From NCBI GenBank assembly GCA_028292435.1, contig JAQGMI010000152.1, forward strand, positions 5,441-69,440: a stretch of 64,000 nt of DNA, in the 5' to 3' direction. Source of the DNA: Betaproteobacteria bacterium (GTDB lineage: Bacteria > Pseudomonadota > Gammaproteobacteria > Burkholderiales > SG8-41). The notes beneath the pieces were generated by a model. The model was not told the DNA's origin, ran no database searches, and saw only the letters and a program-made list of their open reading frames with translations. A program made the position numbers and the translations under genes. Positions 14,989 through 49,107 of this stretch are shown piece after piece (the first letter of the stretch is position 1; each line of letters starts with the position of its first letter).

Positions 14989-14998
14989 CTTTAAAACG

Positions 14999-16652: not shown

Positions 16653-16661
16653 AAAACCCCC

Positions 16662-31607: not shown

Positions 31608-34600
31608 TCATCGCCACGACATGACTCTCACTTCGACGGGCACTCCCGGTCCTTCGGTGGAATTCACGACAGCTTGCTCGGCTGCACGCTGCAGCGACTC
31701 CACCGCTGCTCGGGCTTCTCCGCGAACCTGTATATGCAGAATCGCTCGTTCCGGCGATGCCGGTTCGATACGGACGTACCAATCGTGAGCCGGATCGTAT
31801 TCAGCTTTGCGGCCCGACTTTCGATTCATGTCTTTCAATGCCGCCTTTACAACTTTGTCGATGTAATCCGGCGTGGCGTCCGTTCCTTCGACTTGAGTTT
31901 TGTCGCTTAACCATTCGCCTCCTTCAATACTTATATTCATGACCGTCTGCTTGGTCTTCGGCGTCCCTAAACTCTCGACGGTAAATTTGACGGTAGCCGT
32001 GCCGCCGCGAACGTGATCGTACGCCGGATATCCTGCCGGCAGCTGTCGCATGCCGGGGTAAAACTTTCCGATGTTCGGCTCTGCCGCAAGGCCCGCAGGT
32101 TGTTGCGCAGGGAACGCGTTTTCGAATCCGCCGGCGGGAGGCAAACCTGGCAGGTTTGCTCCGGGAAGCGCTTTGGGAGGCGGCTCTGAGGGCCCCGGCG
32201 GCAAGGCGGCCGGGGCGGTGCTCGTCGGCGGCGCTTGATTATTGGTGGCGTTTAGCAAAGGAACTTCCGGCTGCAATTCACCGCCTTTGACGACTCGTGT
32301 TTTGCCACCGGAATATACGATGCCGTCCCCTGTGATCCGGTTGATGCGGAAGATCCCGTTTGAGTTGTTAGCGGGGTCGACCACAACACCTAAACAGTCT
32401 CCTGTTTCGGGGTTGTCGCTGATTATTCTCCACACAAACTTAGGCTTGGGCGGCGGCCCGGGAGCAAGCGCGTCCTGCGACCCCAATTCAATAGTGTCCC
32501 CGCTTGACACGACTTGCACCGGCTTGGACGAGGGCACCTTGACGATCGATTTGCTTTTACCCGCCGAAGCATTGGGAGCCCCTACCTTTGACTCAGCAAT
32601 CCGCTTAGCCGCCCAGCCACCGGCTGTGGACGCAATTGCAGCCGCCGTATTGAGGATGGCTAGCAGAAGCGCGGCCTGATCCGCGTCATTCTGTGCTTTC
32701 GCTTCATCAACTTGTGCCGGCGTAACAAGGTCGGTACCAGGCTTTACCGCCACTTTTGAGGCCAACAGCATTGCCTTGTATTGCTCAGCCGACATGCCGG
32801 CTTTTGCGCTCGTGGCAACCAGGCCAACGATTGAAGCGGCAACGCCACCTACCCCGGGCACGACCCCACCAATCATGAACGCCATCTGACTGACAGCTTC
32901 TAAACCCAAAGCTTTGAGTGCCTTGTCGTTGTCATGCCCTTGCGTAAGACCTTTAGCGAGCTTGCGCGGAAGAGCCAAAGCCCAATTGGTTTTACTGGTT
33001 GCCTCGATCCCGTTGTAAAGCTGCTCATGCAGGAGCGTTAAATCAAGCGGATTGAGCGCGTTGCCAAGCTTCGCTTTAGCTTGCGTTATATCGCCGCGAA
33101 GCTTGTTCAGCGCTGCGGCAAGCTGCTTACGCGCGACGGCTGGATCGGCTTGCGCAAACGACTGGGTCGTCTCGCTCTTTCCCTCCCGGGTGATCGCATA
33201 AATCAATGGATGTTTGGTAACAAGCGCTCGAATGCCTTCAATGCCCAATTGATATGCATTCAGCATTTCACCGTAAGACTGCAAGTTGACCGGACGGTCC
33301 TGCGGATGGTGAACCGGGTGGTGATCCGCCATTGGGCTGGGATCGTTTAAATCGACCACCGGCGCGGCGGCCCGTTCGGGCGGATGAAATGGATCGAACG
33401 TAACCGGGATCCAATACTGCTTTGACTCGAGGCCTACATGGCCCAGGCTATAGCCCACGTAAACTTGGCGCGCGCGATCCATCTCCTCCTGCGCGTGGGC
33501 TACAGACGCAGCGGCTGATTTCATCGCCAGCATCTGCTGCTCCTGATTCACCGCGGGTGCGCCACTTTGCGGCGCGTCGCCCAATGGAATTCCGGCGGCT
33601 TGCGATTCCGATACAACCAGAGCATCGTTCTGATCGAGATAGCGTGTAGCGAGCGCAACGACATCCGGCGTAAACGCATCGCGCAGTTCTTTGACCTTTG
33701 GAAGATCCTCCAGCTCGGCCCCCGCCTCAACGCTTGCTTCCCATAAAGCCAGGCCTATGAAGCTGGATGCGGCGGAAACAAGCCGATCACCGAAACTCTT
33801 CCAGATGTCCTCCAGCGCATACTCGTCATTGGGACCGACCCAAGTTTGGTCGAGCACGATCCTGATCAGCTTGAACTTGTCCTCTTCGCTCACCTCGTAA
33901 AAGTTTTTAATGTCCTGCACATCGCCGGACTTTTTCGATTTCAGCGCTTTCTCGACCAATTCCTTATTCTTGCGAGATGCTTCGGCGGGTATGGAGGCCG
34001 TTGGTTGTGAGGCCGTCGACGCTCCCGCCGGGACTGATGCAGGCGCCGTACCGGAAGTCATTCCCGCGCTATCCGGCGCACGGTTGATTCTCGCGTTCAC
34101 GCCGGCGGATGTCTGCTGCACGACATGGGCAAGTTCGTGCGCGAGAAGCCTGCGGCCATCCTTCGTGGTCGGTGAAAATTCGTTTTTTCCGAAAACGACA
34201 TGCTCTCCGGCGGTATACGCTTTGGCTTGAATCGCTCGGGCAGACTCGGCGGCGGAATTGTCTGCATGCACTCGAACACCGCTGAAGTCAGTGGCAAACC
34301 GTTGCTCGAAGTCACTTCGAATCCGCGGAGGTAGCGGCTGCCCCCCCGTGCTCAAGCTGAGCGATTCAGATGATGGATTGCTCAATGCTGACTTTCTTTG
34401 CCCGGGCACCACCTTGCGCCGGATTTTTTCTTCTGCCTCTCCATTTCGGCGCGAAGGCGGTGCATATGGCTCGCTCGCCGAAATGCGCTCAGAGGTTTGA
34501 TGTGCGGCGGGCATTTGAACTTCGTTGAAGCGTCCTGCTGTTGCGAATTTGGTCGAAGCTCTGCCGTTGCTCTTTGCCGAGAGCGGCAGATCCAATACTC

Positions 34601-34997
34601 GGTCCGCAATGCGATCGGCTTCCACTTCGTCCGGGTCAGATGGGTCGCTGACGCTCAGCTTCGCCTGAATTCGACTCGATCTGAGCAAACACTGCACGGC
34701 GAGATTCCCTGCGAGCAGCATATTTCCGCCGGGTGCATGAGTCTCCCCATGTGAATCGCGATTCACGCGCTTGCCCGCTTCGATAGCAGCGTTGCGAGCA
34801 AGCGGTTGACGCGGCTTATCGAGATTATGAGCAGGCAACTTATTCGCCTTGCCGGCGGATCCTGGCATCGAAACAACCGAGCGCGGTTTCGGCGAGGCAC
34901 TTGGTCGTTTTACGCTGCTTTTCGATCGCGCAGCCGCACGCTCCGGCACCGGTCGTGCAACTGGCGCCATTTTCTTTGCGGCTACGGCACTCATCAC
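31608..34997 (-). CDS. giant DUF4157-domain protein, putative eCIS cargo/effector 2
   Basis: 1129 aa. AGNLAVQCLLRSSRIQAKLSVSDPSDPDEVEADRIADRV leader and DUF4157 core FSGVRVHADNSAAESARAIQAKAYTAGEHVVFGKNEF...LLAHELAHVVQQ (about nt 34107-34346). The likely true start, ATG 34994, overlaps the ATPase stop (TGATG). Confidence 0.85.
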   Translation of the reverse strand: MMSAVAAKKMAPVARPVPERAAARSKSSVKRPSASPKPRSVVSMPGSAGKANKLPAHNLDKPRQPLARNAAIEAGKRVNRDSHGETHAPGGNMLLAGNLAVQCLLRSSRIQAKLSVSDPSDPDEVEADRIADRVLDLPLSAKSNGRASTKFATAGRFNEVQMPAAHQTSERISASEPYAPPSRRNGEAEEKIRRKVVPGQRKSALSNPSSESLSLSTGGQPLPPRIRSDFEQRFATDFSGVRVHADNSAAESARAIQAKAYTAGEHVVFGKNEFSPTTKDGRRLLAHELAHVVQQTSAGVNARINRAPDSAGMTSGTAPASVPAGASTASQPTASIPAEASRKNKELVEKALKSKKSGDVQDIKNFYEVSEEDKFKLIRIVLDQTWVGPNDEYALEDIWKSFGDRLVSAASSFIGLALWEASVEAGAELEDLPKVKELRDAFTPDVVALATRYLDQNDALVVSESQAAGIPLGDAPQSGAPAVNQEQQMLAMKSAAASVAHAQEEMDRARQVYVGYSLGHVGLESKQYWIPVTFDPFHPPERAAAPVVDLNDPSPMADHHPVHHPQDRPVNLQSYGEMLNAYQLGIEGIRALVTKHPLIYAITREGKSETTQSFAQADPAVARKQLAAALNKLRGDITQAKAKLGNALNPLDLTLLHEQLYNGIEATSKTNWALALPRKLAKGLTQGHDNDKALKALGLEAVSQMAFMIGGVVPGVGGVAASIVGLVATSAKAGMSAEQYKAMLLASKVAVKPGTDLVTPAQVDEAKAQNDADQAALLLAILNTAAAIASTAGGWAAKRIAESKVGAPNASAGKSKSIVKVPSSKPVQVVSSGDTIELGSQDALAPGPPPKPKFVWRIISDNPETGDCLGVVVDPANNSNGIFRINRITGDGIVYSGGKTRVVKGGELQPEVPLLNATNNQAPPTSTAPAALPPGPSEPPPKALPGANLPGLPPAGGFENAFPAQQPAGLAAEPNIGKFYPGMRQLPAGYPAYDHVRGGTATVKFTVESLGTPKTKQTVMNISIEGGEWLSDKTQVEGTDATPDYIDKVVKAALKDMNRKSGRKAEYDPAHDWYVRIEPASPERAILHIQVRGEARAAVESLQRAAEQAVVNSTEGPGVPVEVRVMSWR

Positions 34998-37177
34998 TTT
35001 ATCGCGCTGATCGTGCGTGAACGCTTCCGCGGCGGCTCGCCCACCAATCCCTGATACTGTCGAAAATCGGCGGCCGTCGGCGTCTTACCTTGCTTTGCCA
35101 TTTGCCGCGCGAGCGCTTCGATCACGCACCGCATATCGATTACGTTACTTCCTTGCGCCGCCAGAAACGCCGCGTCCAGCGCAACGTTGCGGATATCGCC
35201 CCCCGCGAGATCGAACTGTTTTGCCAAAAACGTGAAATCAACATCTTCGGCGAGCGGCGCACGCGCCGGGAACATGCCGCGCCACAGGTGCATGCGCTGT
35301 TCCTCATCGGGCGGCGGAAAGTCGATCACGTAATGCACGCGACGATTGAACGCGTCGTCGATATTGCGGCGCAGGTTGGTGGCCAGAATGACGATGCCGT
35401 CGTGCTCTTCGAGCTTCTGTAATAGATAGGCCACTTCGATATTGGCGTAGCGGTCGTGCGCGTCTTTGACTTCGGAACGCTTCCCCATGATCGCCTCGGC
35501 TTCGTCGAGAAAGACAATCGCGTTCGACGTGCGCGCCGCATAGAAAATCCGATCGAGATTTTTCTCCGTTTCGCCGATATATTTGCTGACGATACCGGAC
35601 AGGTCGATCTTGTACATATCGAGGCCCAGATCCCGCGCGATCAGCCCGGCGGCCATGGTCTTACCGGTCCCTGATGGACCTGCGAACAGTGCTTTCACGC
35701 CAGTGCCCGTGCTTACCCGGGCGGCGAAACCCCAATCGTTGTAGACGACATGCCGGAAGCGAATTGCCGCCGTCATCTCATCCAGACGTTGCATCGTATT
35801 AGCGGGCAACACGAGGTCTGAGCGTGCATAACGCGACTCGATTTTCGTCGCAAGCCGTTCGAGACTTTGATCTGCACCCATGCGAACTGCGCTGGCGAGC
35901 GCGGCGGCGTCGATGCCGTCCTGTTCACCATTAAGCAGTTTGATGTCGCGCGCGCTGGCGATAGCGTCGTCGATTTGTCCTGGCGACAATGCAAATCGAT
36001 TCGCGAGCAGTTGCGCATCGGCCACCGGCAAATCGATCTGGCGCCGCGCGAGCAGTTTTTGCCACACTGCCGTCGCCTGCGAAAAATCGTCGAGCACGAA
36101 ACGGAATTCCAGCGCGCGGCGCCCGCGCATCCACGGGCGCCCGGAAGCGCCAGGCGCTACGCTGAGAACGATCGGCGATCCTACTTCTGCGAGCGCGCAA
36201 GAGAGATCGCACGTCTTTGGTGCCCCGTGAGCCTCCGCCGGCAAGCCGTCGAAACCGACGATGTGCAGCACTGCGGGGCGCAAGCGCAGCTGCAGTGCAA
36301 GCAGCGCCAGCAGGTCCGAAAAATTGTCGTCCCGCAACGCCAGCGCCAGATCGAATGTGCAAAGAGGCAGACGCAGTGCCAACGCAAGCGCTTCCGCGGT
36401 GGCGCTACGGCCCGCACCGCCGCTGCCCGAAAAAATCAGTACATTGGACTTGCACCCGTCGGCGTAAAGCGCCGGCAGCTTTGACAGCTCATGTTGGCGT
36501 TGATCGGATAACGGTAAATCCTGCCATCTCAGCGCCGGCCTGGTGATGCGCGCAACGCCGGCCAGCCGCGCGTCGTCTGCGGCCACGCCCTTCAAGTATT
36601 GCGCGACAGGCGTGCTGACAAAAAATCCACCATTGAGCAAGGCCGCGTGGCCCGTCGGCGGCGCAGTGCGTTCAAGCAATAACTCCCTGAACAACGGCCC
36701 GTGCGGCGAAAGCGCCTCGAGTACTGAGACCGCGCCGTGAACGTGGGCAAACAATCGCTCGGCCATGTCGAACGTCGGCCATTTACGCGTCACGTCATTA
36801 TTCAGATAAGCGAACACGGTCTCATAGCGAAGATCGAATTCCACCGCCGATCCCAATAGCAGCAAGTGCTGATCGACCGTCGCCAGACCAAACTCCGAGG
36901 CCAACTCTTTCCATGCGCGGCTCGTGAAGTCCGGATGCGGATATCCGACGTCGGAATCGGTTTGAGCCGCAGCCACTCCGCGCTCGCCTGCAATCCACTC
37001 GTCAACCTGCGCATCGCTCACATAAAGTCCGCGAAATTCATCGAGCGACAGTTGATAGCGGGTGCGCAACCGCTCGATCTCGCGCCCGAGCAGCGAGTCG
37101 AGCCACGCGAACTGAAGCTGCATGTCTTCTGGAATCGCCATTGCGCCGGTTAGTCGCTCGTGAATAGCCCGTAACAT
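34994..37177 (-). CDS. AAA+ ATPase, Afp15/Pvc15-like eCIS assembly/cargo-loading ATPase
   Basis: 727 aa (alternative start at Met 37141 avoids overlap with the upstream gene). C-terminal AAA module: Walker [14 protein letters not shown], Walker [11 protein letters not shown], and [13 protein letters not shown]. Confidence 0.9.
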
Positions 37178-38712
37178 CGCGCATCGCCGAATGGCAGCAC
37201 GTACTTGCCTCCAGTCATTCCGGTCAAGTTCAGGACGAGATGCAAAGGTGCGCGCGCCAATCGAACCACGATGCGCTCAGTTTCAAGGTCGACATGCGCG
37301 CGAAGGTCGAGAAAGTTCTTCCATAGATACGCACAACTCGAATCGGTGAACCCGGGTAGTCGCTTCCCGAATCGCCGCATGACTTCGTATGCAAGCGCAT
37401 TGATCATGCGCGTCCAGCCGGACAGAGGGTGTCCATTCTTTATCGATCGGAAGTACTTTTTATCGGTCGACGAGATGCGCAATGGCCGCTTGTGTTGTGC
37501 CGTGAACTGCTTAAACGAGCGCGCTAACCGCAGCCGCGGCAAGTCGCCTCCGCTTAGCAGTTGCGCAATCGCTTCGACACGCAGTCGTCCGGTTGCGGAT
37601 TCGTCAATGCCGCAAGCAAAGCGGAGCACAGCGTCTTCGTAAGCGATGTCGGCGTTGTCCGCGCCGGTGCATGCCGACAAAACCAGCAGCCGGAGGACTG
37701 CAACCGCGCTATCATCATTCCCAAACGCCGACGCAACGTTCGATTGGTGAAACGTTTCGGCCAGAAGAGGCAGCAGCAAAAAGCAGCCACCGAATGAGGT
37801 GGTGTAAGACATCAGCGTCGAGGGATCTATTACTCGGGATGTAGGGGGTTTGAGCAGATCGGCGACGAGCCGCCGCCCCGCTCGCTCGAGATACGCGAGT
37901 GCCTCACCGTATCTTTCGATTTCCATTGAATGCGGCCAGGTGCCGGTCTCAGCAAGCACCCTTTGCAATTCACGCAGGGCATCGATGGCTGCGTTCAGTT
38001 GGCTGCCGCTCGCGCCGTGTTGCGATGCATGCACAAATAGATTGAGCGTCTGCGCTTCGCTCGAGAGCCGGTGATCGGCCCCATGCCCCAATGCATGGAG
38101 GCATGCGTTCAGACACGACTCCAATGCCGCCGCATTGCCGGCATGCCCCAGATTGATGCGCACCGCGCGCGCATCGTTTGCCGACATTGCGCTGGCAACC
38201 ATTGCCACTTCGTCGTCGCGCATGCGCTGAAGCGCCGTCATACCGAGCCCGGGATCTTCACAGATTGCAGTGCGCAGCACCGCACTCGCCGGCAACAACC
38301 CCAGGCCGCGGTACCGTCCGTAATACCAGCGGCTCCATGCATCGCCATTGGCGCTGTCGATCAGGAACCGCATGAGCAAAGCCGCCGCATCGGCAAAACG
38401 GATCGCTCCGATACCGTCACCATCGCCAACGAGCACATCACGTAAGTTGGCGGCGACCGCACGTGCGACATCCCGCGACAAGTCATCGCTCGGCAGGATA
38501 GCGTTCGCTGCGACGTCGATGTCCACGCGCCGCACCACCCAGATGCTCGCATCATCGCGGTCGCACCAGCGAGCCAGCGTCGCTGACAGCGACCTTTCAA
38601 GCCGTTCGCGTATCGCCTCGTCGCAGCGCGCGCGTATTGCATTCGCATCGGGCGCCGCGCGATCGATCATATATTCGGCGTCGACGCGGCCAATGGTGAG
38701 CTTACCTTCCAC
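37150..38712 (-). CDS. eCIS tape-measure-like protein (Afp14 position)
   Basis: 520 aa between the fibres and the ATPase. The internal hydrophobic FGGCFLLLPLLAETF and the C-terminal NFLDLRAHVDLE...VVRLARAPLHLVLN...YVLPFGD resemble my recollection of contractile-injection-system tape measure proteins. Confidence 0.5.
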   Translation of the reverse strand: MEGKLTIGRVDAEYMIDRAAPDANAIRARCDEAIRERLERSLSATLARWCDRDDASIWVVRRVDIDVAANAILPSDDLSRDVARAVAANLRDVLVGDGDGIGAIRFADAAALLMRFLIDSANGDAWSRWYYGRYRGLGLLPASAVLRTAICEDPGLGMTALQRMRDDEVAMVASAMSANDARAVRINLGHAGNAAALESCLNACLHALGHGADHRLSSEAQTLNLFVHASQHGASGSQLNAAIDALRELQRVLAETGTWPHSMEIERYGEALAYLERAGRRLVADLLKPPTSRVIDPSTLMSYTTSFGGCFLLLPLLAETFHQSNVASAFGNDDSAVAVLRLLVLSACTGADNADIAYEDAVLRFACGIDESATGRLRVEAIAQLLSGGDLPRLRLARSFKQFTAQHKRPLRISSTDKKYFRSIKNGHPLSGWTRMINALAYEVMRRFGKRLPGFTDSSCAYLWKNFLDLRAHVDLETERIVVRLARAPLHLVLNLTGMTGGKYVLPFGDARCYGLFTSD

Positions 38713-38727: not shown

Positions 38728-41022
38728 TCATCCTTTTCGACGGCGCGAAGGACGGGGCGCCTGCGGCGGCAAATGACTAACTGCGGTCGGCGCGATTGCC
38801 TGGTTTTCAGTGGCCGCCTTGCGGTCACTTCGTTCACGCACGGACTTCAGCTCAGCCTCGAGCTTCGTGCACCTCGCGTTCAATTCGCGCAACGCTTCAA
38901 CCATCAGCGCATCGAGCCCCACCGGATTTAACGCTTTGATCCCTGTTTCCGTCGTTTCAACCCACTGGGGAAATATCTTTTCGACATCTTGCGCAATAAA
39001 GCCCGTGTACCGGCCAGCGTTGGCCCCATGCCTTTCAGGCGCCCGCCATGCGAATTCGACGCCCTTCAGTTTCAGCAAACTGCCTAGTGCGCCCTTGAGC
39101 GGCGATACGTCTTTTTTCAGCGCCAGATCGGAAGGCGTTACCCATCCGCCCAAGGTATCTTTGTGCGCGGTGCCGCTGACATGCATTGCGCCGTTGACAT
39201 CCAGCTTGTAAGCAGGTGCCGCAGTGCCGATGCCGACATTTCCCTCGGTCGCGTTATCCGGATTGATAAGGACGTGACGCTTGCCAGGATTGCCTTGTGT
39301 CCGGATGAACAAGTGATGGGTGGTGCTGTGCAGATCGACGTCCGTACCATCTACCCGCAGATCGATGCGCTTCGTATCGTCGCCGAGCCGGATCCGGTTG
39401 CCAATGACGTGTAATGTGGTCTGCGGGGCGGCGGTATTGAAACCGAATCTCGAGCCCATGAATGCCGTAGTGCCGCCGTTGTCCTTAAACACGAAAAGCT
39501 TGTCGACGCCGCCGTCATATTCGATGTCTCCGCCGGAGCTGAATAATTTCAAGTACCCCAGGTTTTGTTTCGCGAGATGCATCAGACCGCTCGGATTCGG
39601 TTCACCAATACCGACGTTGCCGCTGTCGCCCTTGATGACTATGCGCAAATCCCACTTGGCGGGATCGGCATTCACATTCGTCATCATCTTGATCGCCGGC
39701 ACGCCCCCCGTCTCATCGAGCCGCACGCTTGCGGCATTTTTGAGCGGATCGGGAAACTGCCACTTGTCTCCTGCTTTGTAATACGCATTGACGGACAAGC
39801 TGGCCCACCCGCCGCCTTCGTCGCCCGATAAATAACCGACACCCTGGCGGATGCCGGTTGGCCCGCTGACCTGCAATGAATTGGTCGGCGCCGGCGCGTT
39901 GATGCCAACGCGCCCGTCGGTGATGACCGTCAGCCGTTCGACTGAAGTAGCCGGAAGCTTGAATTCGCTGACGGCGAATCGCGTCTCCGTATGCGGAACC
40001 GTGGGCGGACCAATGCACGCCTCGAGCGTGATCTTGCCGGTCGGCGTGGACGTATCTTTAATCCGGCGCAACCACATCGGGATGTCGTCGTTGCCGCCGC
40101 GCTCGACGCGAAAATCCAGCTTGCCGGCGACCAGCCGCGCGTCACCGATGACGCGCAGACTACCTTCGACCCACACGAGATCGTTGTCGGGCACGACACC
40201 CGGGGCGGGCTTCGGCAGCGGCGTTTTAAAATTGAGCGTGCTGTCATCCGGATCCTTGGTGCGGTCGCGCAGCCGCAACACGCCGTCTGGCGCATGGATG
40301 ACTTCGGCGACTGCGCCGAGATAACGACGGCCGCGGCGCGTTGCATTGAGATCGTCATCGCTGCGCTTGATGAGGCGGCCGCTCTGGTTCACCGCTTTGA
40401 CCCAGCGCACGATGCCAATAAAAAGCGCCCAGCGTGGTCGATCGCCGCTATCGGGCAGTTCCTGATAAGGCACCGTCTCGTCATACAACGGCGCGCCGCC
40501 GGATTTGAATGCGCTGATCGCGGCTCTGGCATCGATCGTGCGGCCGGCGACGGCAACACCGCGATATTCGCTGACGGGCGGGCGACGAATTTCCACTCGA
40601 AAGCTCTCTACCACCCGAGCGTAGGGCGAATCTTCGCGGCATGAGGCAAACCCTTCGCCAGGCGCGCGGGCAGGCAGCTCGTGATAAGAAATCCAGATTT
40701 CAAGCGGCGTTCCCGTCGGATCAGTCGGGTCCTGAAAGTTTTCGAATTGCGTGAGACCGATCTTGGTTGGCGCAAGGGCAACCAGATTGCGGCCGATACC
40801 GTCGCAGGCATAGCCCGGCGTGAGGGTTATTTCAACGTCGCCTCCAGGTAACGTGCGCTCAACAAGCTCGAAGCCAATGCCGATGCCCCATGTGTGCGCG
40901 CCGAGCGCATGCCGCGCCTGTCCGTTGCGGGCGAACCTGACGATTGCCGCCAGATCCTCCGCACCCAGGTACTGACCTTCGTAATATTGCGGACGCTCGT
41001 TCTGGTCCATGGCGGCCCCCAT
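38728..41022 (-). CDS. tail-fibre protein with C-terminal Peptidase_S74 intramolecular-chaperone domain (Afp13 position)
   Basis: 764 aa. C-terminus PSDLALKKDVSPLKGALGSLLKLKGVEFAWR...YTGFIAQDVEKIFPQWV...LNPVGLDALMVEALRELNARCTKLEAEL matches endosialidase-chaperone-type autoprocessing domains. Confidence 0.8.
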   Translation of the reverse strand: MGAAMDQNERPQYYEGQYLGAEDLAAIVRFARNGQARHALGAHTWGIGIGFELVERTLPGGDVEITLTPGYACDGIGRNLVALAPTKIGLTQFENFQDPTDPTGTPLEIWISYHELPARAPGEGFASCREDSPYARVVESFRVEIRRPPVSEYRGVAVAGRTIDARAAISAFKSGGAPLYDETVPYQELPDSGDRPRWALFIGIVRWVKAVNQSGRLIKRSDDDLNATRRGRRYLGAVAEVIHAPDGVLRLRDRTKDPDDSTLNFKTPLPKPAPGVVPDNDLVWVEGSLRVIGDARLVAGKLDFRVERGGNDDIPMWLRRIKDTSTPTGKITLEACIGPPTVPHTETRFAVSEFKLPATSVERLTVITDGRVGINAPAPTNSLQVSGPTGIRQGVGYLSGDEGGGWASLSVNAYYKAGDKWQFPDPLKNAASVRLDETGGVPAIKMMTNVNADPAKWDLRIVIKGDSGNVGIGEPNPSGLMHLAKQNLGYLKLFSSGGDIEYDGGVDKLFVFKDNGGTTAFMGSRFGFNTAAPQTTLHVIGNRIRLGDDTKRIDLRVDGTDVDLHSTTHHLFIRTQGNPGKRHVLINPDNATEGNVGIGTAAPAYKLDVNGAMHVSGTAHKDTLGGWVTPSDLALKKDVSPLKGALGSLLKLKGVEFAWRAPERHGANAGRYTGFIAQDVEKIFPQWVETTETGIKALNPVGLDALMVEALRELNARCTKLEAELKSVRERSDRKAATENQAIAPTAVSHLPPQAPRPSRRRKG

Positions 41023-42746
41023 TATCGATTCAAGAGTTTTTCGATGGCCTTCTGCTGCTTCGCCACGGTCGCCTGTAAATCGGCGACCGCCTGGCCGAGC
41101 GCATTGGCATTGGTTTGCGTCGACGACAGCGTCTGCAATAACGGTGCAACAACCTGATGAATGAGAATGGCCTGCGCCGGATTAGCGAGTTCGGCCGGCA
41201 GAATAGGTTTGCCGCCGGCGGGCCCGTTGCCCATCGCCGCGAGCAGCCAGTTGCCGAAATCAACGGGGGCGCCACCCTTCAGTGCATTGTCGAGGATCTC
41301 GCCGAAGGGGCCGGCGCCGCCGGGCGCTGCTGCACCGGCTGCGCCGCCAACAAACCCGGCGACTCCAACCGGCTGTCCATCCGGGTTGTTCGGCTCTCTT
41401 GCTTGGCGCAGCGGCTTGCAACACAGCGCTTCGACGAGGTCACGCAAGCTTGGTTTTTTACCCCCGCCGACCACCACACCGCCGGCACCGCCCGCGTTGG
41501 CGCCGGAATTAAAGATCGGCAGCCACGACAGCCAGTATTCGAGAATGGGAAACGTGAGCAGGAATTTACGATTCGCGATATCGCAGATTTTTTTTACCCG
41601 GCACTTGCCGCGACTCACGGTAACGGTCGCAATCGGCACGCAGTCGGCATCGGCCGGCAGCGGACATGGCGGCAGCAATGCGGCGCACAGACATTTCTGC
41701 AGAATGCTTTTCACGATTTCAAAGATACTCTCGACCGCTGCGTTCCAGGCGACGAGATATGCGTTGTGATTACCTTCCGCTTCATTCGGCAGCGGTATGG
41801 CATTGATGCGCGCTGCGAGGTCGCAGTCGTATAAACTCTCCGTGATTAAAAACTCGGCAACCGCATCTTTGAGTTCAACCAGCCATTTCTGGAGAACGGC
41901 ATTCGAAGAGTTGGCAGGCGGCGTTTTCTCGAGCCGTTCGAACAGCGGCTGCACGCAGCAGATAAAACGGCGCACAAGTTCGCCGGGATCAGACTCGCGC
42001 ACTGCCTTCTTGGGCGCGGCATACACGGCAAAACCGTAGCCTTCGCAGATGATCGTGGGCTCGCATTGCGCCGGCAACGATTTCGGTTGCGCCATTTTTT
42101 TCGACGGCGTCATACCGCTGCCGCAACTGCAGCCTGCCGCGCCGCCGCATCCGCAGCCGCCGTGAGAAGACTTACAACCGCCCGTGCAGCCGGGCGTGCC
42201 GCAGCCGCACGAAGCGCCGCTGCCGCCGCGCAGCGCCGTGATACCGCGCGACGGTTTTTCCTGATAGCAGATGGCGAGCACCCAATCCTCGGTGCCCTGC
42301 CGGCATTCGTTGTCGTTGGGATTGCGCGGGTCGAGGCATTCATCCGGCAAACGCGGCCGGCAGCGATTGATGAGATCGCAGATGTTCACCTGCTCGTCAT
42401 GGCACACGACGATGTCGTTGCCGCATGGACTGAGTGCATAGCCCGGCCGCACCACCACCGTGCCGTTACCCGCGGGATCGCACACGCTGCAAACCACTTC
42501 GAGTCCGCACACGACGCCGGTACCGAACAGGTGCCGGTTATGCATGCGGTTCTTGGCGACAATATAGTGATCGAGCCGGTTGAGATCTTCATCGGTCAGC
42601 AGCTGGCCGGCAAAAAATCGCGGCCGGCATAGACATTCGAGTCCGCCGCAGGCGGGGCACACGGGCCGCGGGTCGCAAGTGGGTTTTGGGCGGCAATCCG
42701 GAAACCCCGGGGTTTGGACGAATGCTGCCATCAGATCGTTTGCCAT
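41022..42746 (-). CDS. Cys-rich fibre/baseplate-associated protein, paralogue 2 (unknown family)
   Basis: 574 aa with about 37 Cys (hand count). N-terminal ~170 aa are homologous to the two flanking genes. Contains the Gly/Cys tract GGSGASCGCGTPGCTGGCKSSHGGCGCGGAAGCSCGSG and a coiled-coil-like C-terminus. Confidence 0.6.
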   Translation of the reverse strand: MANDLMAAFVQTPGFPDCRPKPTCDPRPVCPACGGLECLCRPRFFAGQLLTDEDLNRLDHYIVAKNRMHNRHLFGTGVVCGLEVVCSVCDPAGNGTVVVRPGYALSPCGNDIVVCHDEQVNICDLINRCRPRLPDECLDPRNPNDNECRQGTEDWVLAICYQEKPSRGITALRGGSGASCGCGTPGCTGGCKSSHGGCGCGGAAGCSCGSGMTPSKKMAQPKSLPAQCEPTIICEGYGFAVYAAPKKAVRESDPGELVRRFICCVQPLFERLEKTPPANSSNAVLQKWLVELKDAVAEFLITESLYDCDLAARINAIPLPNEAEGNHNAYLVAWNAAVESIFEIVKSILQKCLCAALLPPCPLPADADCVPIATVTVSRGKCRVKKICDIANRKFLLTFPILEYWLSWLPIFNSGANAGGAGGVVVGGGKKPSLRDLVEALCCKPLRQAREPNNPDGQPVGVAGFVGGAAGAAAPGGAGPFGEILDNALKGGAPVDFGNWLLAAMGNGPAGGKPILPAELANPAQAILIHQVVAPLLQTLSSTQTNANALGQAVADLQATVAKQQKAIEKLLNR

Positions 42747-42838
42747 AATCTTTCTCCTGCTTGAATTCAGCTATGCGGTGAGTGCGAACGGATCGCGGGA
42801 ATCGATTCAATGTATGGGGGCGAATGAATCCACATCGG

Positions 42839-44350
42839 CTAACCGCCAATTTCAAACCAGCTTTCGAACGTGCCGCCTTCGATGCCATCGCCAGTAACGC
42901 CGCCGTTAGGGGAAACCCACGGCGGCAGGTGATTGATATCGACCGCAACATCGCGCCCCATTTCCCGAATTAGATCTCCCTTGATGACTACGCGATATTT
43001 ACCTGGTCGAAATCCTTCGCGTGGCGTGAACCGCACAAAATTCGGTTTAGGCGCGCCGTTGACGAACTCATCATTTACCTTGCACGGAGTTCTGAGTTGT
43101 TCGACGCTGAGCGTGCCTACCATTTCGCACCAGCATGTCAGTTTCGTCCGATCGTCAGGTTCACCGCGTTGCACGATAAAAGTATTCTCATTGATATCGC
43201 CGCCATTGATTGGGCCGTCAAACGCAACGGTCAACCCCTTCTTTGGGGCAGTTATTTTCTCGGCGTGTTTCCAGTTGATGCCGCAGATGTGCGTGTATTT
43301 CGCGCCGCAGTTCGTCGGGATCTCGAGCTGAAGTATTCGCTGGCCGCCGACAACCACAATTTGGCCGACCGGTGGCGTGCCGCACGGGACGATTTTTAAA
43401 TCGACGTTGTCGAGACCCGGTCCGCCGGGCCCTCCCGCCGCGCCGTCCTTGCCTGCCGGTATGACAAGGTGCAGCGTTCGCTTGCCGGGTGTCGGCGTAT
43501 CTTCAAGCAACGTAGCGGTTGCGAGCGTACCGGGCGCGCCGGTCGCCACCGTGACGAAATCGATGCCCTTGCCGTCTTTGCCGGGCGGCCCTTCGCCGCC
43601 TCCGCCGCCGGGACCTTTGGTCAAAATGCAATCGATCACCTGCTTGACCAGCTGCACCGAGGGCAAAATTGTCCGCGTGCTGTTATCGATGTCAGCGTCG
43701 GCGACCGGCGCACCGACACGCCAGCCATTGATGGTTGCAAGAACGAGGCAATCGGGCACGTCGCAGTGCGGACAACCGTCAACGCTCGTCACCCACAGGT
43801 CGCCGCATTTCTCTGGAAACGGCGGCTTCTCAGGGTCATTGGGCGGATCGACGAGCACATCGAGCTCGTACGATTCGAGGATGCGGTTGGGCGCGCACGT
43901 TTCTTCATCGCAGCCGCATTCATCGTAGAGCTTCGGAATCGGCTCCGACTCGCACTCTTTGTATCGGATGCAGATTTTCAAGACGTGGCGCTTCTCGTCG
44001 TTGGCTTCCTTCAGCTTCATCAGCGCCGGGATGCTCCAGAGATCGATGCAATCCTGCTCGCGCACGACAATGTCGTGGCCGCAGCAATCGACCGCCGTTC
44101 CGGGCTCGACGCAAACAAAGCGATCGCGGCAAGCCTCTTTCGGATGCTGCGCGACCTTGAGTCCGCACACGATGCCGAACCCGTGCAGCTTCTGATTGTG
44201 ATGGCGCAGCTTTTCGATGCCGTAGCGCTGCTCGTCTGTGAAGTCGCGCGCCAGCATGAGCTTGCCGGTCCAGTACGCGTTGCGCGTAAACGGGCCAAAA
44301 TCGCAGGCAGGACAGTGCTCCGCTTCGTGATGATCGTGATCGTACGGCAT
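42839..44350 (-). CDS. Cys-rich fibre/baseplate-associated protein, paralogue 3, with short collagen-like Gly-rich segments
   Basis: 503 aa with about 24 Cys. Shares the N-domain (CPAC...HNQKLHGFGIVCGLKV...EPGTAVDCCGHDIVV). Contains KGPGGGGGEGPPGKDGKG and AGKDGAAGGPGGPG. Confidence 0.6.
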   Translation of the reverse strand: MPYDHDHHEAEHCPACDFGPFTRNAYWTGKLMLARDFTDEQRYGIEKLRHHNQKLHGFGIVCGLKVAQHPKEACRDRFVCVEPGTAVDCCGHDIVVREQDCIDLWSIPALMKLKEANDEKRHVLKICIRYKECESEPIPKLYDECGCDEETCAPNRILESYELDVLVDPPNDPEKPPFPEKCGDLWVTSVDGCPHCDVPDCLVLATINGWRVGAPVADADIDNSTRTILPSVQLVKQVIDCILTKGPGGGGGEGPPGKDGKGIDFVTVATGAPGTLATATLLEDTPTPGKRTLHLVIPAGKDGAAGGPGGPGLDNVDLKIVPCGTPPVGQIVVVGGQRILQLEIPTNCGAKYTHICGINWKHAEKITAPKKGLTVAFDGPINGGDINENTFIVQRGEPDDRTKLTCWCEMVGTLSVEQLRTPCKVNDEFVNGAPKPNFVRFTPREGFRPGKYRVVIKGDLIREMGRDVAVDINHLPPWVSPNGGVTGDGIEGGTFESWFEIGG

Positions 44351-44379: not shown

Positions 44380-46659
44380 TTAACTCAGAACCGCGGTCGT
44401 GCCCATGCGTCCTTCCTTGCCGACGGCGATGCCCGGGCCGCCGGCAAGGTGCGGCGGCGAAGTCAAAACCGACGCGGGACCGAGCGGCGTTACGCCAAGC
44501 GCAAAACCCTGCGGCAGCGCGGCGATCACCGAATCGAAGCCAAGCATCGACTGCACGCCGATCCGGAATCGCGGCTCGACGAATTGCAACGAGAATTGCG
44601 TGTGCGCGGGCGCTTCATTGCGCAGCAAGATATCGAACGACCGGCGCATTTGCTCCGAATCGCGGCAGCGCGCCGGCAGGAAGACTGAAAACTGATGTGC
44701 GTGCACCAGAAATGGATCGCGGTCCGGATCCGGCGTCATCACGAGCCGCGACACGCCGGCCTGCGCGTTGGCGTTCAACTGCGCGCGATTGACGATCCGG
44801 TTGCCCCAGAGCACGGCTTGTTCGCCGAGGCGTCCGGCCCCTAAGCGCAACCAGCGGCGGAGGCAGAAATGCTCGAGGAGCAACGCCGGGGCCTTCCACG
44901 AAGGGCACTCGACTGGCGCGCAGTTCGCCGGCTCGGGGCTGCACTTACGTGACGGATGAGACAAAGGTGCGCAGCCGCGGCGATGCGTCCAGCCGAGCAA
45001 CAGCAAAAGTTGTTCGCGCAATCCTGCGCGCGTGCCCCGCTTGTCGAACAACGTGCCGGCGCTTTTCAGCAACCGCCGTCGCGTGGCGACGTCCCAGTTG
45101 CGGTCGAACGTCAGCCCGACCCACGACGCAAGCCAGCTTAAAAAGTCCAAACCGCGCGGCGTGAGCGGCGTTGCCGGTGCAGAGCCGGCATCGTACAAGC
45201 GTGCACCGGCATCGACTTCGTGCTCAAGCGAACGAAACGTTGTGTCGTAGAGCGCGAGAAAGCGATCGGTGAAATCTGCACTGACCGGCTCTGTCCCAAA
45301 GACCGCAGGCAGCAGGCGGCGCAGGCTGATGCGCGGAAATTCGATGACGATGCTCTCGATCATCGGTGTCGCGGCACTATTCCCGCTTAATTCGAGCTCG
45401 AGCCACAGATAGCGTCCGGGCACGCTGCGCACGAGGCAATCCCACTGCGCATCGCCATCGAGCGATTGCGCAGCCGCCGCCGATTGCCACGCGCCAAACT
45501 GATCGAGCTCGTCTTTCGAATACACCACTTCCGAGGTGAAGGTGCGCACCCCGATGCGCGTCCCCTGCGGCAAATCGCCTTTGAGAATCACGCGATGCCA
45601 TTGACACTGCGCGATGCGGCTGTCGAGCGCCTCCGAGCGATATGTGCCGGCCGCGACGTAAATTTTCGTCGGGCCAACGGGTGCTTTGGCCAGCGGATCA
45701 CCGTTCAAATCGAACCAGCCGGAACGCGGTTCGCTTGCAGGGCAGGCGCAAGGGTCTGGCGGTTTTGCCGGCTTGCTGCACCAGTTTTGCAGATCAAGAT
45801 TGCCCTTCGCATCGCTACCCACTTTCGCGGGCGTAAAGCCCTGTATCGCGTCGGCCGGCAGTTTCGGCGCTATGGCGGACCTCCCTTGCTGATCGAACGC
45901 AAGCAGTTCGGAAGGAACGTCAGCGGTGACGACGTACACGCGATCGCGACGATCGATTGCGATATGCGCAGCATTGCTCGCGCACGGAAACGCAACTTCC
46001 CATTGGCCGCTCGGGGCAAAGCGGTGCAGACGTCCCAGCGCATCCGCAATCCAGGCGCGAGACAGCGAATCGAACGCGATCGACACCGGGCGCCACGGCA
46101 ATTCTTTCGTCGGCGGTCGCAAATGTCCGCGCAACGCAAAGCCCTTGAGCGAAAAGACGCTGATGCGATGATTTTCGCGTTGAATCGCTTTATTCAGCGC
46201 CCCAACGTCGTCACACGCATCAGGCTCAGGTGCTTTTTCGATACCGGTGTCGACGACGAACAGATTGCCGCCGCAGATCGCGATGTCGCCGGGATTGCGC
46301 AACTCTCGTGCACCGCCCCCTTCTCCGCCGATGCATGGCACGATTTCGAACGTACAAGTGCAGGGATCAAAACGGCGAAGGTGCAAACGCTTTCTGTCGA
46401 GCAGATACAGGCTGTCATCCGGGCCGAACGCCACATTGCCTGGCAGGCGCAGGCCGCCGAGCGAACCGGACGCCTCGGCAAGCTTGCGCGCAGTGGCGGG
46501 CAGGTAAGCAAGCTCGAGCCCGCCATGGCAGGGATCGATCTGCACATTCGCAAGCGGCCCGGGACCTGCTGCGCGCCAGCCGACGTGGCCGTTCAATAAC
46601 AATGAAGTCGGATCGTGCGGCGGCGCGAAGGCCGGCAGGAATGGCAGCGGCGCATTCAT
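44380..46659 (-). CDS. baseplate protein with P2 gpI-like tail-protein domain (Afp12-like)
   Basis: 759 aa. LDFLSWLASWVGLTFDRNWDVATRRRLLKSAGTLFDKRGTRAGLREQL is typical of the gpI / 'phage tail protein' domain. 4-nt overlap with the baseplate J gene. Confidence 0.75.
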   Translation of the reverse strand: MNAPLPFLPAFAPPHDPTSLLLNGHVGWRAAGPGPLANVQIDPCHGGLELAYLPATARKLAEASGSLGGLRLPGNVAFGPDDSLYLLDRKRLHLRRFDPCTCTFEIVPCIGGEGGGARELRNPGDIAICGGNLFVVDTGIEKAPEPDACDDVGALNKAIQRENHRISVFSLKGFALRGHLRPPTKELPWRPVSIAFDSLSRAWIADALGRLHRFAPSGQWEVAFPCASNAAHIAIDRRDRVYVVTADVPSELLAFDQQGRSAIAPKLPADAIQGFTPAKVGSDAKGNLDLQNWCSKPAKPPDPCACPASEPRSGWFDLNGDPLAKAPVGPTKIYVAAGTYRSEALDSRIAQCQWHRVILKGDLPQGTRIGVRTFTSEVVYSKDELDQFGAWQSAAAAQSLDGDAQWDCLVRSVPGRYLWLELELSGNSAATPMIESIVIEFPRISLRRLLPAVFGTEPVSADFTDRFLALYDTTFRSLEHEVDAGARLYDAGSAPATPLTPRGLDFLSWLASWVGLTFDRNWDVATRRRLLKSAGTLFDKRGTRAGLREQLLLLLGWTHRRGCAPLSHPSRKCSPEPANCAPVECPSWKAPALLLEHFCLRRWLRLGAGRLGEQAVLWGNRIVNRAQLNANAQAGVSRLVMTPDPDRDPFLVHAHQFSVFLPARCRDSEQMRRSFDILLRNEAPAHTQFSLQFVEPRFRIGVQSMLGFDSVIAALPQGFALGVTPLGPASVLTSPPHLAGGPGIAVGKEGRMGTTAVLS

Positions 46660-48677
46660 GCCGTGCCCTCAAAGCTGTAATCGACGCTGATCTCGTGCTC
46701 CGCCGAATACAGCAGCGCATTGAGCGCAATCGGCACGTCCGTACATTCCTTCATCGCTTCACCGTCGAGCACGATCTGCAGCCGGGTGATGCTTGCTACG
46801 CCGTCGATCGTGAACACGCGCTGATATACGCGCGAGTAAAAAATGCTGCCGCCGAACGGCCAGCCGCTGCCCTCCTCGCCGCCAATCAGCGGATGAAAAT
46901 AGTCTATGAGCTGCTGCACGGTCTGGTCATGGACCTGCGCGAGATCGGCGTTATCTGCGGCCACAATTTCGGCAACAACTTTTACCTCTTGATACGACGG
47001 CTTGATCACGAACAACTCGGTCGTCAGCAGACGCCGCGCATTCAAATATTCGCAAACCGTTCGCAACGTGCCCTCGCTCGGCGTGGGCCGCGGCTCTCTA
47101 ACATCTGCATCCGGCACGACGATGACCGATACGGCGCCGGGCACCTTGATCGTCGGAAATTCAGGATGGAATAACGGCAATGCTTTCGCGCGCCGGATGT
47201 TGGCCGATTCTTTGGCGAGATACTCGAAATCATCCGCGGTCACTGCCCGGCAGCGGGATTTGAGCGTGCCCGGTGCTCGCTTTTTCGCCTGGTTGAGCGT
47301 TTCTTCGTCGCGGCCGCTGTATGCCGCCGCCAGATTGCGAACCTCGTTAGCATCAATGCCAGGCACCGGTGTCACCAGCGTGCTGATAGCACCTGCGGGA
47401 ACGTTGCCGCGCATGCCGCCGCCGAAACGATAAATGCGCGCCACCACGTTAGCGCCGGCGTTTTTGACGTAGGCCACCGGAATGTCGCCGTTGATTCCGT
47501 CGCCGGTGAAAATGTCGCCCGTGGCGCGGTTCAGCACATACTGTTGATCGGCAGGCCCGGCGCCGAAGAAGTCATCAACTTCCGCCCAGCGTTCGGGGCC
47601 GTCGTCGCTCTGCTGGATTTCGAGTTCGAGCGTTCCCTTGAGCACCGGCTTGTTCGCGAGCCTGAACCGCTGGTTGCGGCTGCCGTCGCTTCCGCCGAGG
47701 ACTTCGTCGCGGATGGTTTCCGCCTGCTCGACCGCTACGGTATTCATGCGAATGGCCACGATTTCCGGCGCGCGCTCATACTGGCCCTTGGTCACACGCG
47801 CGCGAATCCAATAGCGATTCGGCTCGGCCGGATCGGCGGGATCAAGCTTGGTCTGCGCGGTCAGCGGTATTTTCGCGGCCGGTAATTTTAGATACACACG
47901 ACCCGACCGGGTGAACGCCAGCGTCTCGTCTTTTAGCAACGTCAACGCCTGCCACGCGCTGCCGTTCCAGAATTCCCAGACGAGTTTTGCGGGGCCGTAG
48001 GCGTGCGTTTCCATGAACCCACATGACAGGTACTGCGCTTTACGCGTATCGCGAGCGACGGTGACAGCGAGATTGAGTGTCTCCGCCGGCAACGCAGCGG
48101 GTGTCGCGTTCGGGTCGATCAAGCCCAGCCCGAGCCAGGCGCCGTCGATCGCACGAGTGCCGAACGGCTGGAATGCGCGCACCGCCTCGGTGTTGAGCGC
48201 AGTGACGTCGGTGTTGCCGATATCGGGATCGCCGACCACGATCGCGTCAAGCCTCGCACGCAGCGCAATCAGCGACGTCTTGGTCTCGAAAATAAGCTGC
48301 GGTCCGCCGTCCCCCGGATCGGCCGACAACTGTGTGCGTTCAGGCACGCGCACCACGGTATCAGCGAACGCTTTATCAACACCGAACGAAACTTCCGCGA
48401 GCGCGGGTTCTGCCGGCTTCAACTCGATGCCGATGAGCTGCAGAAACTTTAAGTAGTTGAGCGCCGGCACCCGGTTCATGCGATAGAGCAGCATCTCGGC
48501 CTGCCAGGCAAACACCTGGGTTAACGTGATGCCGGGATCGTTGTCGTTGACATCGGTCCACGCCGACGCGCCGGGCTTCCACTCGGGCGCGTAGCGCGCG
48601 ATGCGCGTGCGCACCTCGGTCATGATGTCGTCGAAGCGACGATCGTCGAGCAGCGGGATCTGATCTTCGAGCGGCAT
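46656..48677 (-). CDS. baseplate J-like protein (Afp11-like)
   Basis: 673 aa. N-terminus LLDDRRFDDIMTEVRTRIARYAPEWKP...NDPGITLTQVFAWQAEMLLYRMNRVPALNYLKFLQLIGIEL is typical of eCIS baseplate J proteins. Confidence 0.85.
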   Translation of the reverse strand: MPLEDQIPLLDDRRFDDIMTEVRTRIARYAPEWKPGASAWTDVNDNDPGITLTQVFAWQAEMLLYRMNRVPALNYLKFLQLIGIELKPAEPALAEVSFGVDKAFADTVVRVPERTQLSADPGDGGPQLIFETKTSLIALRARLDAIVVGDPDIGNTDVTALNTEAVRAFQPFGTRAIDGAWLGLGLIDPNATPAALPAETLNLAVTVARDTRKAQYLSCGFMETHAYGPAKLVWEFWNGSAWQALTLLKDETLAFTRSGRVYLKLPAAKIPLTAQTKLDPADPAEPNRYWIRARVTKGQYERAPEIVAIRMNTVAVEQAETIRDEVLGGSDGSRNQRFRLANKPVLKGTLELEIQQSDDGPERWAEVDDFFGAGPADQQYVLNRATGDIFTGDGINGDIPVAYVKNAGANVVARIYRFGGGMRGNVPAGAISTLVTPVPGIDANEVRNLAAAYSGRDEETLNQAKKRAPGTLKSRCRAVTADDFEYLAKESANIRRAKALPLFHPEFPTIKVPGAVSVIVVPDADVREPRPTPSEGTLRTVCEYLNARRLLTTELFVIKPSYQEVKVVAEIVAADNADLAQVHDQTVQQLIDYFHPLIGGEEGSGWPFGGSIFYSRVYQRVFTIDGVASITRLQIVLDGEAMKECTDVPIALNALLYSAEHEISVDYSFEGTA

Positions 48678-48710: not shown

Positions 48711-49100
48711 TCATGCCGCCTCCCGGACGTAGAACGGATACACGAGATTGCCGATGGCGTTATTGGCACGGATGCGGTAACTGATACGGATCAGCAGCAG
48801 ATTTTCACCCTGCGCTTCGGCGTTCAGGTCGAGCACATCGATCCGCGGTTCGAATTTGGTGAGCGCCGTGCGCACGGATTGCACCGTGCTCGATATCGTG
48901 GCGACGCTGTTCGGCGCGAACACGAGATCGTGGATCCCGCAGCCGAAATCGGGCAGCATCACGCGCTCACCTTTCGCGGTCGATAGAATCAGGTAGATCG
49001 ATTCTTCGATGCGCTGCTCGTAGCGGGACTGCGCAATACGCCCGGATGGCGTGACCTGCAGCGGAAACTTCCACCCTATGCCTAAAAAATCGCGTGCCAT
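48711..49100 (-). CDS. GPW/gp25-family baseplate wedge protein (Afp9-like)
   Basis: Start taken at Met 49100 (the ORF extends to 49265, overlapping the upstream gene). Reads MARDFLGIGWKFPLQV...IEESIYLILSTAKGERVMLPDFGCGIHDLVF...ALTKFEPRI. Confidence 0.9.
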   Translation of the reverse strand: MARDFLGIGWKFPLQVTPSGRIAQSRYEQRIEESIYLILSTAKGERVMLPDFGCGIHDLVFAPNSVATISSTVQSVRTALTKFEPRIDVLDLNAEAQGENLLLIRISYRIRANNAIGNLVYPFYVREAA

Positions 49101-49107
49101 GACGCTC

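Follow-up and report, generated by a model that had tools for sequence, protein, structure and literature searches.

Five N-terminal domains that anchor proteins to the baseplate of extracellular contractile injection systems (eCISs) were defined by Nachmias, Wang, Feng, Jiang and Levy (Nat Commun 2026, PMC12923769). One of these eCIS baseplate-anchor (eBAP) domains, eBAP3, is a shoulder-like, TssK-like domain of ~200 amino acids (aa) that occurs in loci with a Tail_P2_I, TssG-like adaptor, and another, eBAP4, corresponds to the first 200 aa of the crown protein of the thylakoid-anchored contractile injection system (tCIS). In the same study, 23.4% of the loci had more than one fiber gene and 6.7% had three, eBAP3 fibers were modeled on the loops of Tail_P2_I, and eBAP3 baseplates were suggested to carry up to four fibers on these adaptor loops (PMC12923769). 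An operon with three different fibers sharing eBAP3 appears in Supplementary Fig. 2e of that paper, and its tables contain three-gene loci as consecutive genes that are all listed as eBAP3, the middle gene being listed under eBAP4 as well (PMC12923769). Here we describe three consecutive genes, called A, B, and C, at positions 38728 to 44350 of a 64,000-nucleotide stretch of contig JAQGMI010000152.1. This stretch, referred to below as the window, contains one complete eCIS locus from a betaproteobacterial metagenome-assembled genome (MAG). Given the 2026 catalogue (PMC12923769), the kind of arrangement that had been noticed in these genes was already known; the locus is one more of the catalogued type and is, for the window itself, ordinary. 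What the present comparison adds, as a modest contribution, is that the three genes are, judged from their sequences, a fixed and ancient orthologous set across many phyla.

Solved structures are available for several relatives. All3314, or Cis19, is the homotrimeric “crown” protein of the Anabaena tCIS (PMC8894136), located on the periphery of the baseplate (PDB 7b5h). In AlgoCIS (9wt0), cryo-electron microscopy showed that the shoulder homotrimer of Alg19 sits on the C-terminal loop of the Cis12 homologue, Alg12, which is gripped by the shoulder helices; this shoulder folds like lactococcal phage receptor-binding proteins and TssK, and Alg19 mediates target-cell binding and stabilizes the pre-firing state (PMC13314943). 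TssK from the T6SS (type VI secretion system) shares the shoulder fold (6n38, 5y0e, and 5mwn). There, one TssG, a relative of P2 gpI, holds more than one shoulder trimer via hydrophobic loops: TssG has two loops, and the cavity of a single TssK trimer receives three hydrophobic residues from each of them (PMC6300606). The overall T6SS stoichiometry is 36 TssK per 6 TssG.

The region between 38728 and 44350 consists of exactly three consecutive open reading frames (ORFs), all on the same strand:

42839..44350, minus strand: gene A, 503 aa; class-A shoulder protein, in which the shoulder is followed by two short collagen-like runs and, at the C terminus, by a beta-sandwich tip (ORF).
41022..42746, minus strand: gene B, 574 aa; class-B shoulder protein, Cis19-crown-like (ORF).
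38728..41022, minus strand: gene C, 764 aa; class-C shoulder protein, a long fiber with an S74 intramolecular chaperone (ORF).

An AGGAGA Shine-Dalgarno sequence lies upstream of both A and B. The end of B and the beginning of C overlap at the stop and start codons (TAATG), suggesting that these two genes are translationally coupled. In a Betaproteobacteria MAG, JWN94_4332 and JWN94_4331 match the products of B and C, respectively, with 100% identity.

Pairwise BLASTP linked the N-terminal parts of A and B (E = 2e-12, 38% identity over 85 aa) and of B and C (E = 1e-7, 28% identity over 130 aa); the pair A and C reached only E = 1.0, in the same register as the other two pairs. Profile-profile comparison with hhalign, based on family alignments of 121 (A), 120 (B), and 74 (C) sequences, connected all pairs: A and B with a probability of 99.6 and E = 4.5e-24 (A 9-242 against B 26-409), A and C with a probability of 95.5 and E = 1.6e-8 (A 20-168 against C 7-148), and B and C with a probability of 90.5 and E = 1.3e-6. 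These profile statistics rule out a chance similarity of the N termini. On the strength of the sequence comparisons, the three N-terminal domains are homologous. Since A 9-242 aligns with B 26-409, the common domain comprises ~245 residues and, in A, extends past the limits first assigned to it by eye. The B shoulder is split by two insertions, seen both in the hhalign alignment and in the AlphaFold2 (AF2) model, and the AF2 models of A and B, which were predicted as monomers, agree in the succession of their elements, which begins with a long N-terminal helix and continues with a beta-sandwich, a late pair of beta-strands, and a closing helix. The parts of the domain are located as follows:

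43616..44350, minus strand: A shoulder (eBAP3-like), residues 1-245, from hhalign against B and Foldseek.
41520..42671, minus strand: B shoulder, residues 26-409, from the A-B hhalign alignment and the AF2 secondary structure and pLDDT.
42063-42242, minus strand: Gly/Cys-rich loop inserted in the B shoulder, residues ~169-228, pLDDT <50.
41676-41981, minus strand: helical domain inserted in the B shoulder, residues 256-357, from AF2 and hhalign.
40579..41004, minus strand: C shoulder core, residues 7-148, from hhalign against A and B and from CIS13_fam (1.1e-6).

The shared domain has the shoulder fold known from TssK and from phage receptor-binding proteins, as present in Cis19 of the tCIS and Alg19 of AlgoCIS, and it is the domain that Nachmias et al. 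named eBAP3/eBAP4 (PMC12923769). At the level of sequence, B matched All3314 of 7b5h in a phmmer search (E = 1.2e-5), and the searches with B and the mixed A/B/C profile reached this chain at E values of 1.2e-5, 2.9e-5, and 7.4e-7. The mixed profile also gave a weak in-register match (E = 0.7) to the 1443-aa chain of 9wt0, which is taken to be Alg19 on the basis of its length. Single-sequence PDB searches with A and C returned no relevant match to the N-terminal domain, so that Cis19 was reached by B and the mixed profile only. At the level of structure, the best Foldseek matches of B were the three chains 7b5h_AA, AB, and AC (E = 1e-5, probability 1.0, ~450 columns), followed by the TssK structures 5y0e, 5mwn, and 6n38 (E ~1e-2, probability up to 0.97), and the N-terminal part of A matched many phage “Receptor Binding Protein” models in BFVD (probability 0.99-1.0, ~200 columns). 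Two traits of eBAP3/eBAP4 are present here, namely, a ~200-aa N-terminal domain like those of the tCIS crown, TssK, and phage receptor-binding proteins, and a location of the genes directly downstream of Tail_P2_I and Baseplate_J genes in an eCIS locus. The likeness to the Cis19 crown continues beyond the shoulder, into a bulky alpha+beta or helical domain, in B only (the ~450 columns mentioned above), and the long distal Ig/PKD/lectin chain of the crown protein (~1400 aa) is absent from B, which has 574 aa, no Pfam match, and a helical end.

Family databases gave a narrower picture. Pfam and PHROGs scans returned nothing for A or B. NCBIfam CIS13_fam (NF053767) matched the N termini of A (2e-25), B (1.1e-11), and C (1.1e-6) at profile positions ~3-146 of 392, with bit scores of 89.9, 44.7, and 28.2, all below the equivalog cutoff of 370 bits; the limited range of the match and the low scores indicate that the proteins have the N-terminal domain in common with this family and that they are not its equivalogs. 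Likewise, no Pfam or NCBIfam TssK match was found for A, B, or C, and their context is an eCIS (Pvc16_N, eCIS_core, and CIS_tube); they share with TssK the fold only. Searches of the PDB by sequence with A, B, C, or the family profiles returned no PVC or AFP chain and hence no sign of an Afp13/Pvc13-type (eBAP1) protein. The candidate assignment of C to DUF6519/eBAP5 was rejected, there being no Pfam match at E <0.01.

These results bear on most of what the original prediction had proposed from the letters alone. The common N-terminal domain in all three proteins proved significant, in BLASTP for two pairs and in hhalign for all three, and the distal parts do differ, with an S74 domain in C, X-Y-G runs and a beta-sandwich in A, and a Gly/Cys tract and terminal helices in B. 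The suggestion that the domain is a baseplate-docking module also finds support in its homology to Cis19 and in the binding of the Alg19 shoulder to Alg12 seen by cryo-electron microscopy (PMC13314943). That the domain belongs to no named family is correct for Pfam and PHROGs as regards A and B and incorrect for NCBIfam CIS13_fam and for eBAP3/eBAP4 (PMC12923769). Finally, the description of all three genes as fiber-like suits C, a long fiber, but not B, whose best structural match over ~450 columns is a crown protein.

Another claim that was not borne out concerns exchangeability: the prediction pictured three alternative receptor-binding modules that could give the particle multiple or exchangeable specificities, whereas our survey found three orthologous classes side by side, in one order, in almost all related loci. 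A profile of the domain matched 11,730 clusters at 50% identity. For survey 1, 80 genomic loci were fetched with a class-A pattern; they come from Acidobacteriota, Gemmatimonadota, Chloroflexota, Actinomycetota, Verrucomicrobiota, several proteobacterial classes, Rokubacteria, and others. Because this survey is biased toward loci with A, survey 2 was seeded with class B on metagenome contigs, and 80 metagenome loci plus 2 viral-contig loci were fetched with a class-B pattern. Exactly three tandem shoulder genes were found in 71 survey-1 loci and in the window. The order A, B, C was present in 71 of the 72 untruncated loci seeded with class A; the other loci fetched in this survey are cut by contig ends or split by a frameshift. 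The sole real exception in survey 1 (L017, a Gemmatimonadaceae MAG, 9989-17649) reads Cis12, A, B, p520, Cis15, without C, and represents a clean natural loss of the class-C fiber. In survey 2, the order A, B, C was found in every locus bounded by Cis12 and by p520 or Cis15 (~30 loci). Over both surveys, that is, ~100 loci from more than 10 phyla, Cis12, A, B, C, p520, and Cis15 keep a fixed order, L017 being the one exception, and the longer series gp25, Cis11, Cis12, A, B, C, p520, Cis15 hardly varies. One three-gene survey locus (L073) lies on contig KB903294.1, which is part of the Nachmias dataset, in a structural cluster with an eBAP3 collagen-type fiber (PMC12923769). A scan of the IMG/VR viral contigs found the class-B gene on two contigs only (L081 and L082); the module is therefore not phage-borne, being essentially absent from the phage genomes of that collection.

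The 216 N-terminal domains compared fell into three clean orthologous classes, none being misclassified, with median identities of 56, 48, and 42% within the three classes and of 27 to 36% between classes. Within each class, the proximal portion of the distal region is conserved in most loci, and across the surveyed loci the distal parts of A, B, and C showed no similarity between classes. The tips are shared narrowly: of 71 loci, ~18 have the beta-sandwich of A, ~17 the final 125 aa of B, and ~13 the S74 end of C. The same gradient is seen between the window proteins and their closest relatives, where identity falls from 92-100% at the N terminus to 60-74% at the C terminus. Together, the fixed order, the class structure, and the class-specific distal parts indicate that the triplication is ancient and that the set is inherited as a unit. 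Specificity most likely changes through replacement or divergence of the tips inside each class, with whole cassettes not being swapped.

Beyond the shoulder, the following distal features were assigned:

43415..43615, minus strand: A stalk, residues 246-312, two X-Y-G (collagen-like) runs around a small beta module.
42842..43414, minus strand: A tip, C-terminal beta-sandwich, residues 313-503, presumed binding module (pLDDT >90 in the model).
41028..41180, minus strand: C-terminal long helices of B, residues 523-573, putative coiled coil (AF2 helices H523-545 and H547-573).
38959..39132, minus strand: Peptidase_S74 chaperone domain of C, residues 631-688 (Pfam PF13884, E = 1.2e-12, 48.3 bits against a cutoff of 22).

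The AF2 model of A has a mean pLDDT of 79. Its X-Y-G runs lie at residues 246-262 and 298-312, and pLDDT in this monomer model drops below 50 at 250-261 and 303-309. The class-A family consensus has ~10 G-X-Y triplets at the position of the stalk, the class-A family profile matches collagens in the PDB, and many class-A homologues carry Pfam Collagen (PF01391) or beta-propeller domains, other class-A proteins of ~820 aa having both. According to the model, the A tip resembles CopC/PcoC-type Ig sandwiches, in fold only (Foldseek E = 3.6e-4, TMt 0.65-0.79). For C, the PHROGs matches are tail-fiber families, and the class-C family profile matched the Bdellovibrio fiber 8ond (2.5e-18) as well as the T4 long tail fiber 6f45 and 8jov; with fiber repeats followed by a C-terminal Peptidase_S74 domain above the Pfam gathering score, C has the makeup of an S74-chaperone tail fiber. 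As a separate observation, conserved cysteines are unusually numerous in the shoulders of A (43616-44350) and B (41520-42671). There are ~16 in A, among them a CPxC at 13-16, a CC at 89-90, and a C-x-C at 145-147, and ~30 in B; C contains one. Cysteine-rich shoulders in a particle that is assembled in the cytoplasm suggest metal sites or disulfides formed after release.

Set against the described systems, the eBAP3 multifiber loci of Nachmias et al. agree with the window in the ~200-aa shoulder-like anchor, in the position of the genes directly downstream of the Tail_P2_I adaptor, in the proposed TssK/TssG-like docking, and in the collagen and beta-propeller/lectin architectures (PMC12923769). 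They differ in that the middle member here is crown-like and in the evolutionary picture: multifiber loci were presented there as a minority and a sign of rapid, versatile evolution, whereas here the three genes form a fixed ancient set in one large clade. B agrees with Cis19 in sequence, in its best structural match, and in the N-terminal shoulder. Yet Cis19 has 1476 aa with long flexible distal domains, in contrast to the 574 aa, coiled-coil end, Gly/Cys-rich loop, and ~30 conserved cysteines of B, and searches of the PDB with A, C, and the family profiles detected no A- or C-type partner by sequence in the tCIS structure 7b5h. AlgoCIS has a single fiber gene of 1443 aa with PKD/Ig domains in place of three genes, and, as mentioned, the similarity in sequence is marginal. 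The T6SS uses two copies of one TssK trimer, as opposed to three different paralogues, and the distal head of TssK binds the membrane complex, whereas the distal parts of A, B, and C are fibers or binders. The adenovirus-like fibers Afp13/Pvc13 (eBAP1) correspond in operon position, after the baseplate genes, and in general role, but have a different shaft and an alpha-helical anchor of ~50 aa instead of a shoulder.

All eCIS genes of the window lie on the minus strand. In the direction of transcription, and with A, B, and C following Cis12, they are as follows:

60547-61173, minus strand: Pvc16_N cap protein (family match).
55938-59087, minus strand: sheath protein, 1049 aa (family match).
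53417-55429, minus strand: sheath protein, 670 aa (family match).
Between sheath and spike in locus order, minus strand: gp19-type tube protein, then a CIS_tube and LysM protein (family matches).
49884-50726, minus strand: gpV-like spike (family match).
48711-49265, minus strand: putative gp25-like protein, assigned from its position and from conservation in related loci.
46656-48677, minus strand: Baseplate_J/Cis11 (family match).
44380-46659, minus strand: Cis12, Tail_P2_I/TssG-like wedge adaptor, 759 aa (Pfam Tail_P2_I and NHL; NCBIfam CIS12_fam 6.9e-41; TIGR02242).
44386..44847, minus strand: C-terminal region of Cis12, residues 605-758, with four conserved hydrophobic-Gly motifs at 605, 699, 720, and 745.
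37150-38712, minus strand: p520, a conserved 520-aa protein without Pfam or NCBIfam match.
34994-37177, minus strand: Cis15, AAA+ ATPase (family match).
31608-34997, minus strand: eCIS_core/DUF4157 protein, 1129 aa (family match).
28389-31559, minus strand: eCIS_core/DUF4157 protein, 1056 aa (family match).

The two sheath genes differ strongly in length (670 and 1049 aa), and a 466-aa ORF without any family match (59150-60550) sits between the longer one and the Pvc16_N cap gene. The two eCIS_core/DUF4157 proteins downstream of the ATPase are likely cargo or effectors; a homologue of the first occupies the same position in many related loci. The p520 gene always sits between C (in L017, B) and the AAA+ ATPase gene, a position that is also that of the tape-measure or length-determining gene Afp14. 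The order Baseplate_J, Tail_P2_I, A, B, C is the same in related loci as in the window, and Cis12 lies directly upstream of A in nearly all of them. Cis12 is conserved over its full length, including its NHL-like N-terminal part. This part (residues 1-400, 45460-46659), a conserved extension of ~400 aa with an NHL-repeat match that is present in nearly all related loci, is probably a beta-propeller. At the other end, an alignment and pattern search of 67 orthologues showed conservation of the four motifs, which have the form hydrophobic-G-x(3-5)-hydrophobic-G-x(2-5)-hydrophobic-hydrophobic. By analogy, these may be TssG-like loops for shoulder trimers, which we regard as a lead and not as a result.

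How might three homologous shoulders be arranged on one baseplate? By analogy with TssK on TssG, we consider it reasonably probable that A, B, and C form three different homotrimers per wedge, docked on loops of Cis12. The three would then be peripheral baseplate proteins of the eCIS, each forming its own homotrimer and each plugging by its shoulder onto hydrophobic loops of the TssG-like Cis12 encoded just upstream, such that each of the six wedges would carry three different appendages. Of these, A would be a short binder on a collagen stalk, tipped by an Ig-like beta-sandwich; B would be a crown element like Cis19, with a coiled coil at its end; and C would be a long beta-helical fiber folded by its own S74 chaperone. 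B may be mainly structural, though its C terminus also diverges quickly.

The homotrimeric state of each protein is suggested by several observations, most of which also speak against the alternative that one A, one B, and one C chain build a pseudo-threefold heterotrimeric shoulder per wedge with three unlike arms. Collagen-like G-X-Y repeats form a triple helix and need three such chains, and they occur in class A only; the S74 chaperone and beta-helical fiber repeats match homotrimeric fibers (8ond, 6f45, and 8jov) and occur in C only; the solved relatives Cis19, Alg19, and TssK are homotrimers; and locus L017 keeps A and B in the absence of C. In addition, a protein encoded in another three-gene locus has been modeled as a homotrimer in the literature, with an ipTM of 0.75. 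A heterotrimer would, for its part, agree with the strict co-occurrence and fixed order of the genes, with the coupling of B and C through TAATG, with the inherently asymmetric adaptor-trimer contacts between Alg12 and Alg19 (PMC13314943), and with the three similar but nonidentical hydrophobic motifs in which Cis12 ends; on balance we hold it to be highly improbable. Competition of the three proteins for one common baseplate socket, which would yield mosaic particles or subpopulations of different specificity, appears unlikely, if less so. In favor of a common socket, A, B, and C have the same fold and variable tips, and in all three conservation is highest in the N-terminal helix together with the G-x-G-(I/V)-x-x-G strand, the stretch that makes the adaptor-loop contact in Alg19 and TssK. 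However, the N-terminal domains are ancient separate classes (none of 216 misclassified, between-class identity of only 27 to 36%), they co-occur strictly 1:1:1 in a fixed order across phyla, the B shoulder has two large insertions, and the T6SS offers a precedent in which each trimer has a loop of its own. Three distinct sites agree better than one shared socket with the way in which shoulders and proximal parts are conserved class by class.

A different alternative concerns function: the shoulder proteins could be anchors to a structure of the producer cell, like TssK or like Cis13/Cis12 of the tCIS, in a system that acts from inside the cell. TssK indeed joins the baseplate to a membrane complex, the tCIS and haloarchaeal CIS attach to membranes via peripheral baseplate proteins, and B resembles a tCIS protein. 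Against such a role, C is a typical tail fiber with S74, like the prey-recognition fibers of Bdellovibrio, A has a collagen stalk and a lectin/Ig-like tip, with beta-propellers in its relatives, and a faster divergence of the tips than of the anchors is what receptor binders typically show. Moreover, AlgoCIS particles of the tail-fiber knockout ΔAlg19 were rarely seen bound to target cells (PMC13314943), and no transmembrane segment was suggested by reading the sequences or by the AF2 model of B, no transmembrane predictor having been used. An anchoring role of this kind is thus about as improbable as the heterotrimer, and target binding by the window proteins is what we infer instead.

The arrangement of three docked homotrimers has points against it as well. 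Both the docking sites and the oligomeric state are derived from analogy and sequence. The motifs of Cis12 are short, putative loops; moreover, the last three lie within 60 residues of each other and may thus be too close for three separate trimers. The collagen-like runs of the window A have only 5 to 6 X-Y-G triplets each, in two runs, and do not reach Pfam Collagen. Lastly, the Foldseek matches of the N-terminal part of A to Cis19 (7b5h, E = 0.015) and TssK (5y0e, E = 0.11) are modest, because the query was a multidomain monomer model. A more far-reaching version, which we offer tentatively and think somewhat less likely to be right than wrong, takes A, B, and C as the three obligate parts, inherited together, of a baseplate periphery made of three different shoulder trimers or, less likely, of one heterotrimer. 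This would be an expanded TssG-(TssK3)2 design with B as a structural crown, A and C as receptor binders with independently evolving tips, and the cysteines of A and B as metal sites or as disulfides that, once formed after release, would lock the assembly.

eCIS particles are being engineered as programmable devices for protein delivery, and their targeting depends on how fibers are attached to the baseplate. If each wedge in this large environmental eCIS clade always bears three distinct appendages, each docked separately, retargeting will have to take account of three class-specific anchors, and there would be no universal plug. Cis12 with three shoulder trimers would be a defined structural target for studying an expansion of the TssG-TssK docking principle. 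If each wedge does always bear the three appendages, target recognition by a particle may rest on an unchanging trio: a short binder with a collagen stalk, a crown, and a long fiber.

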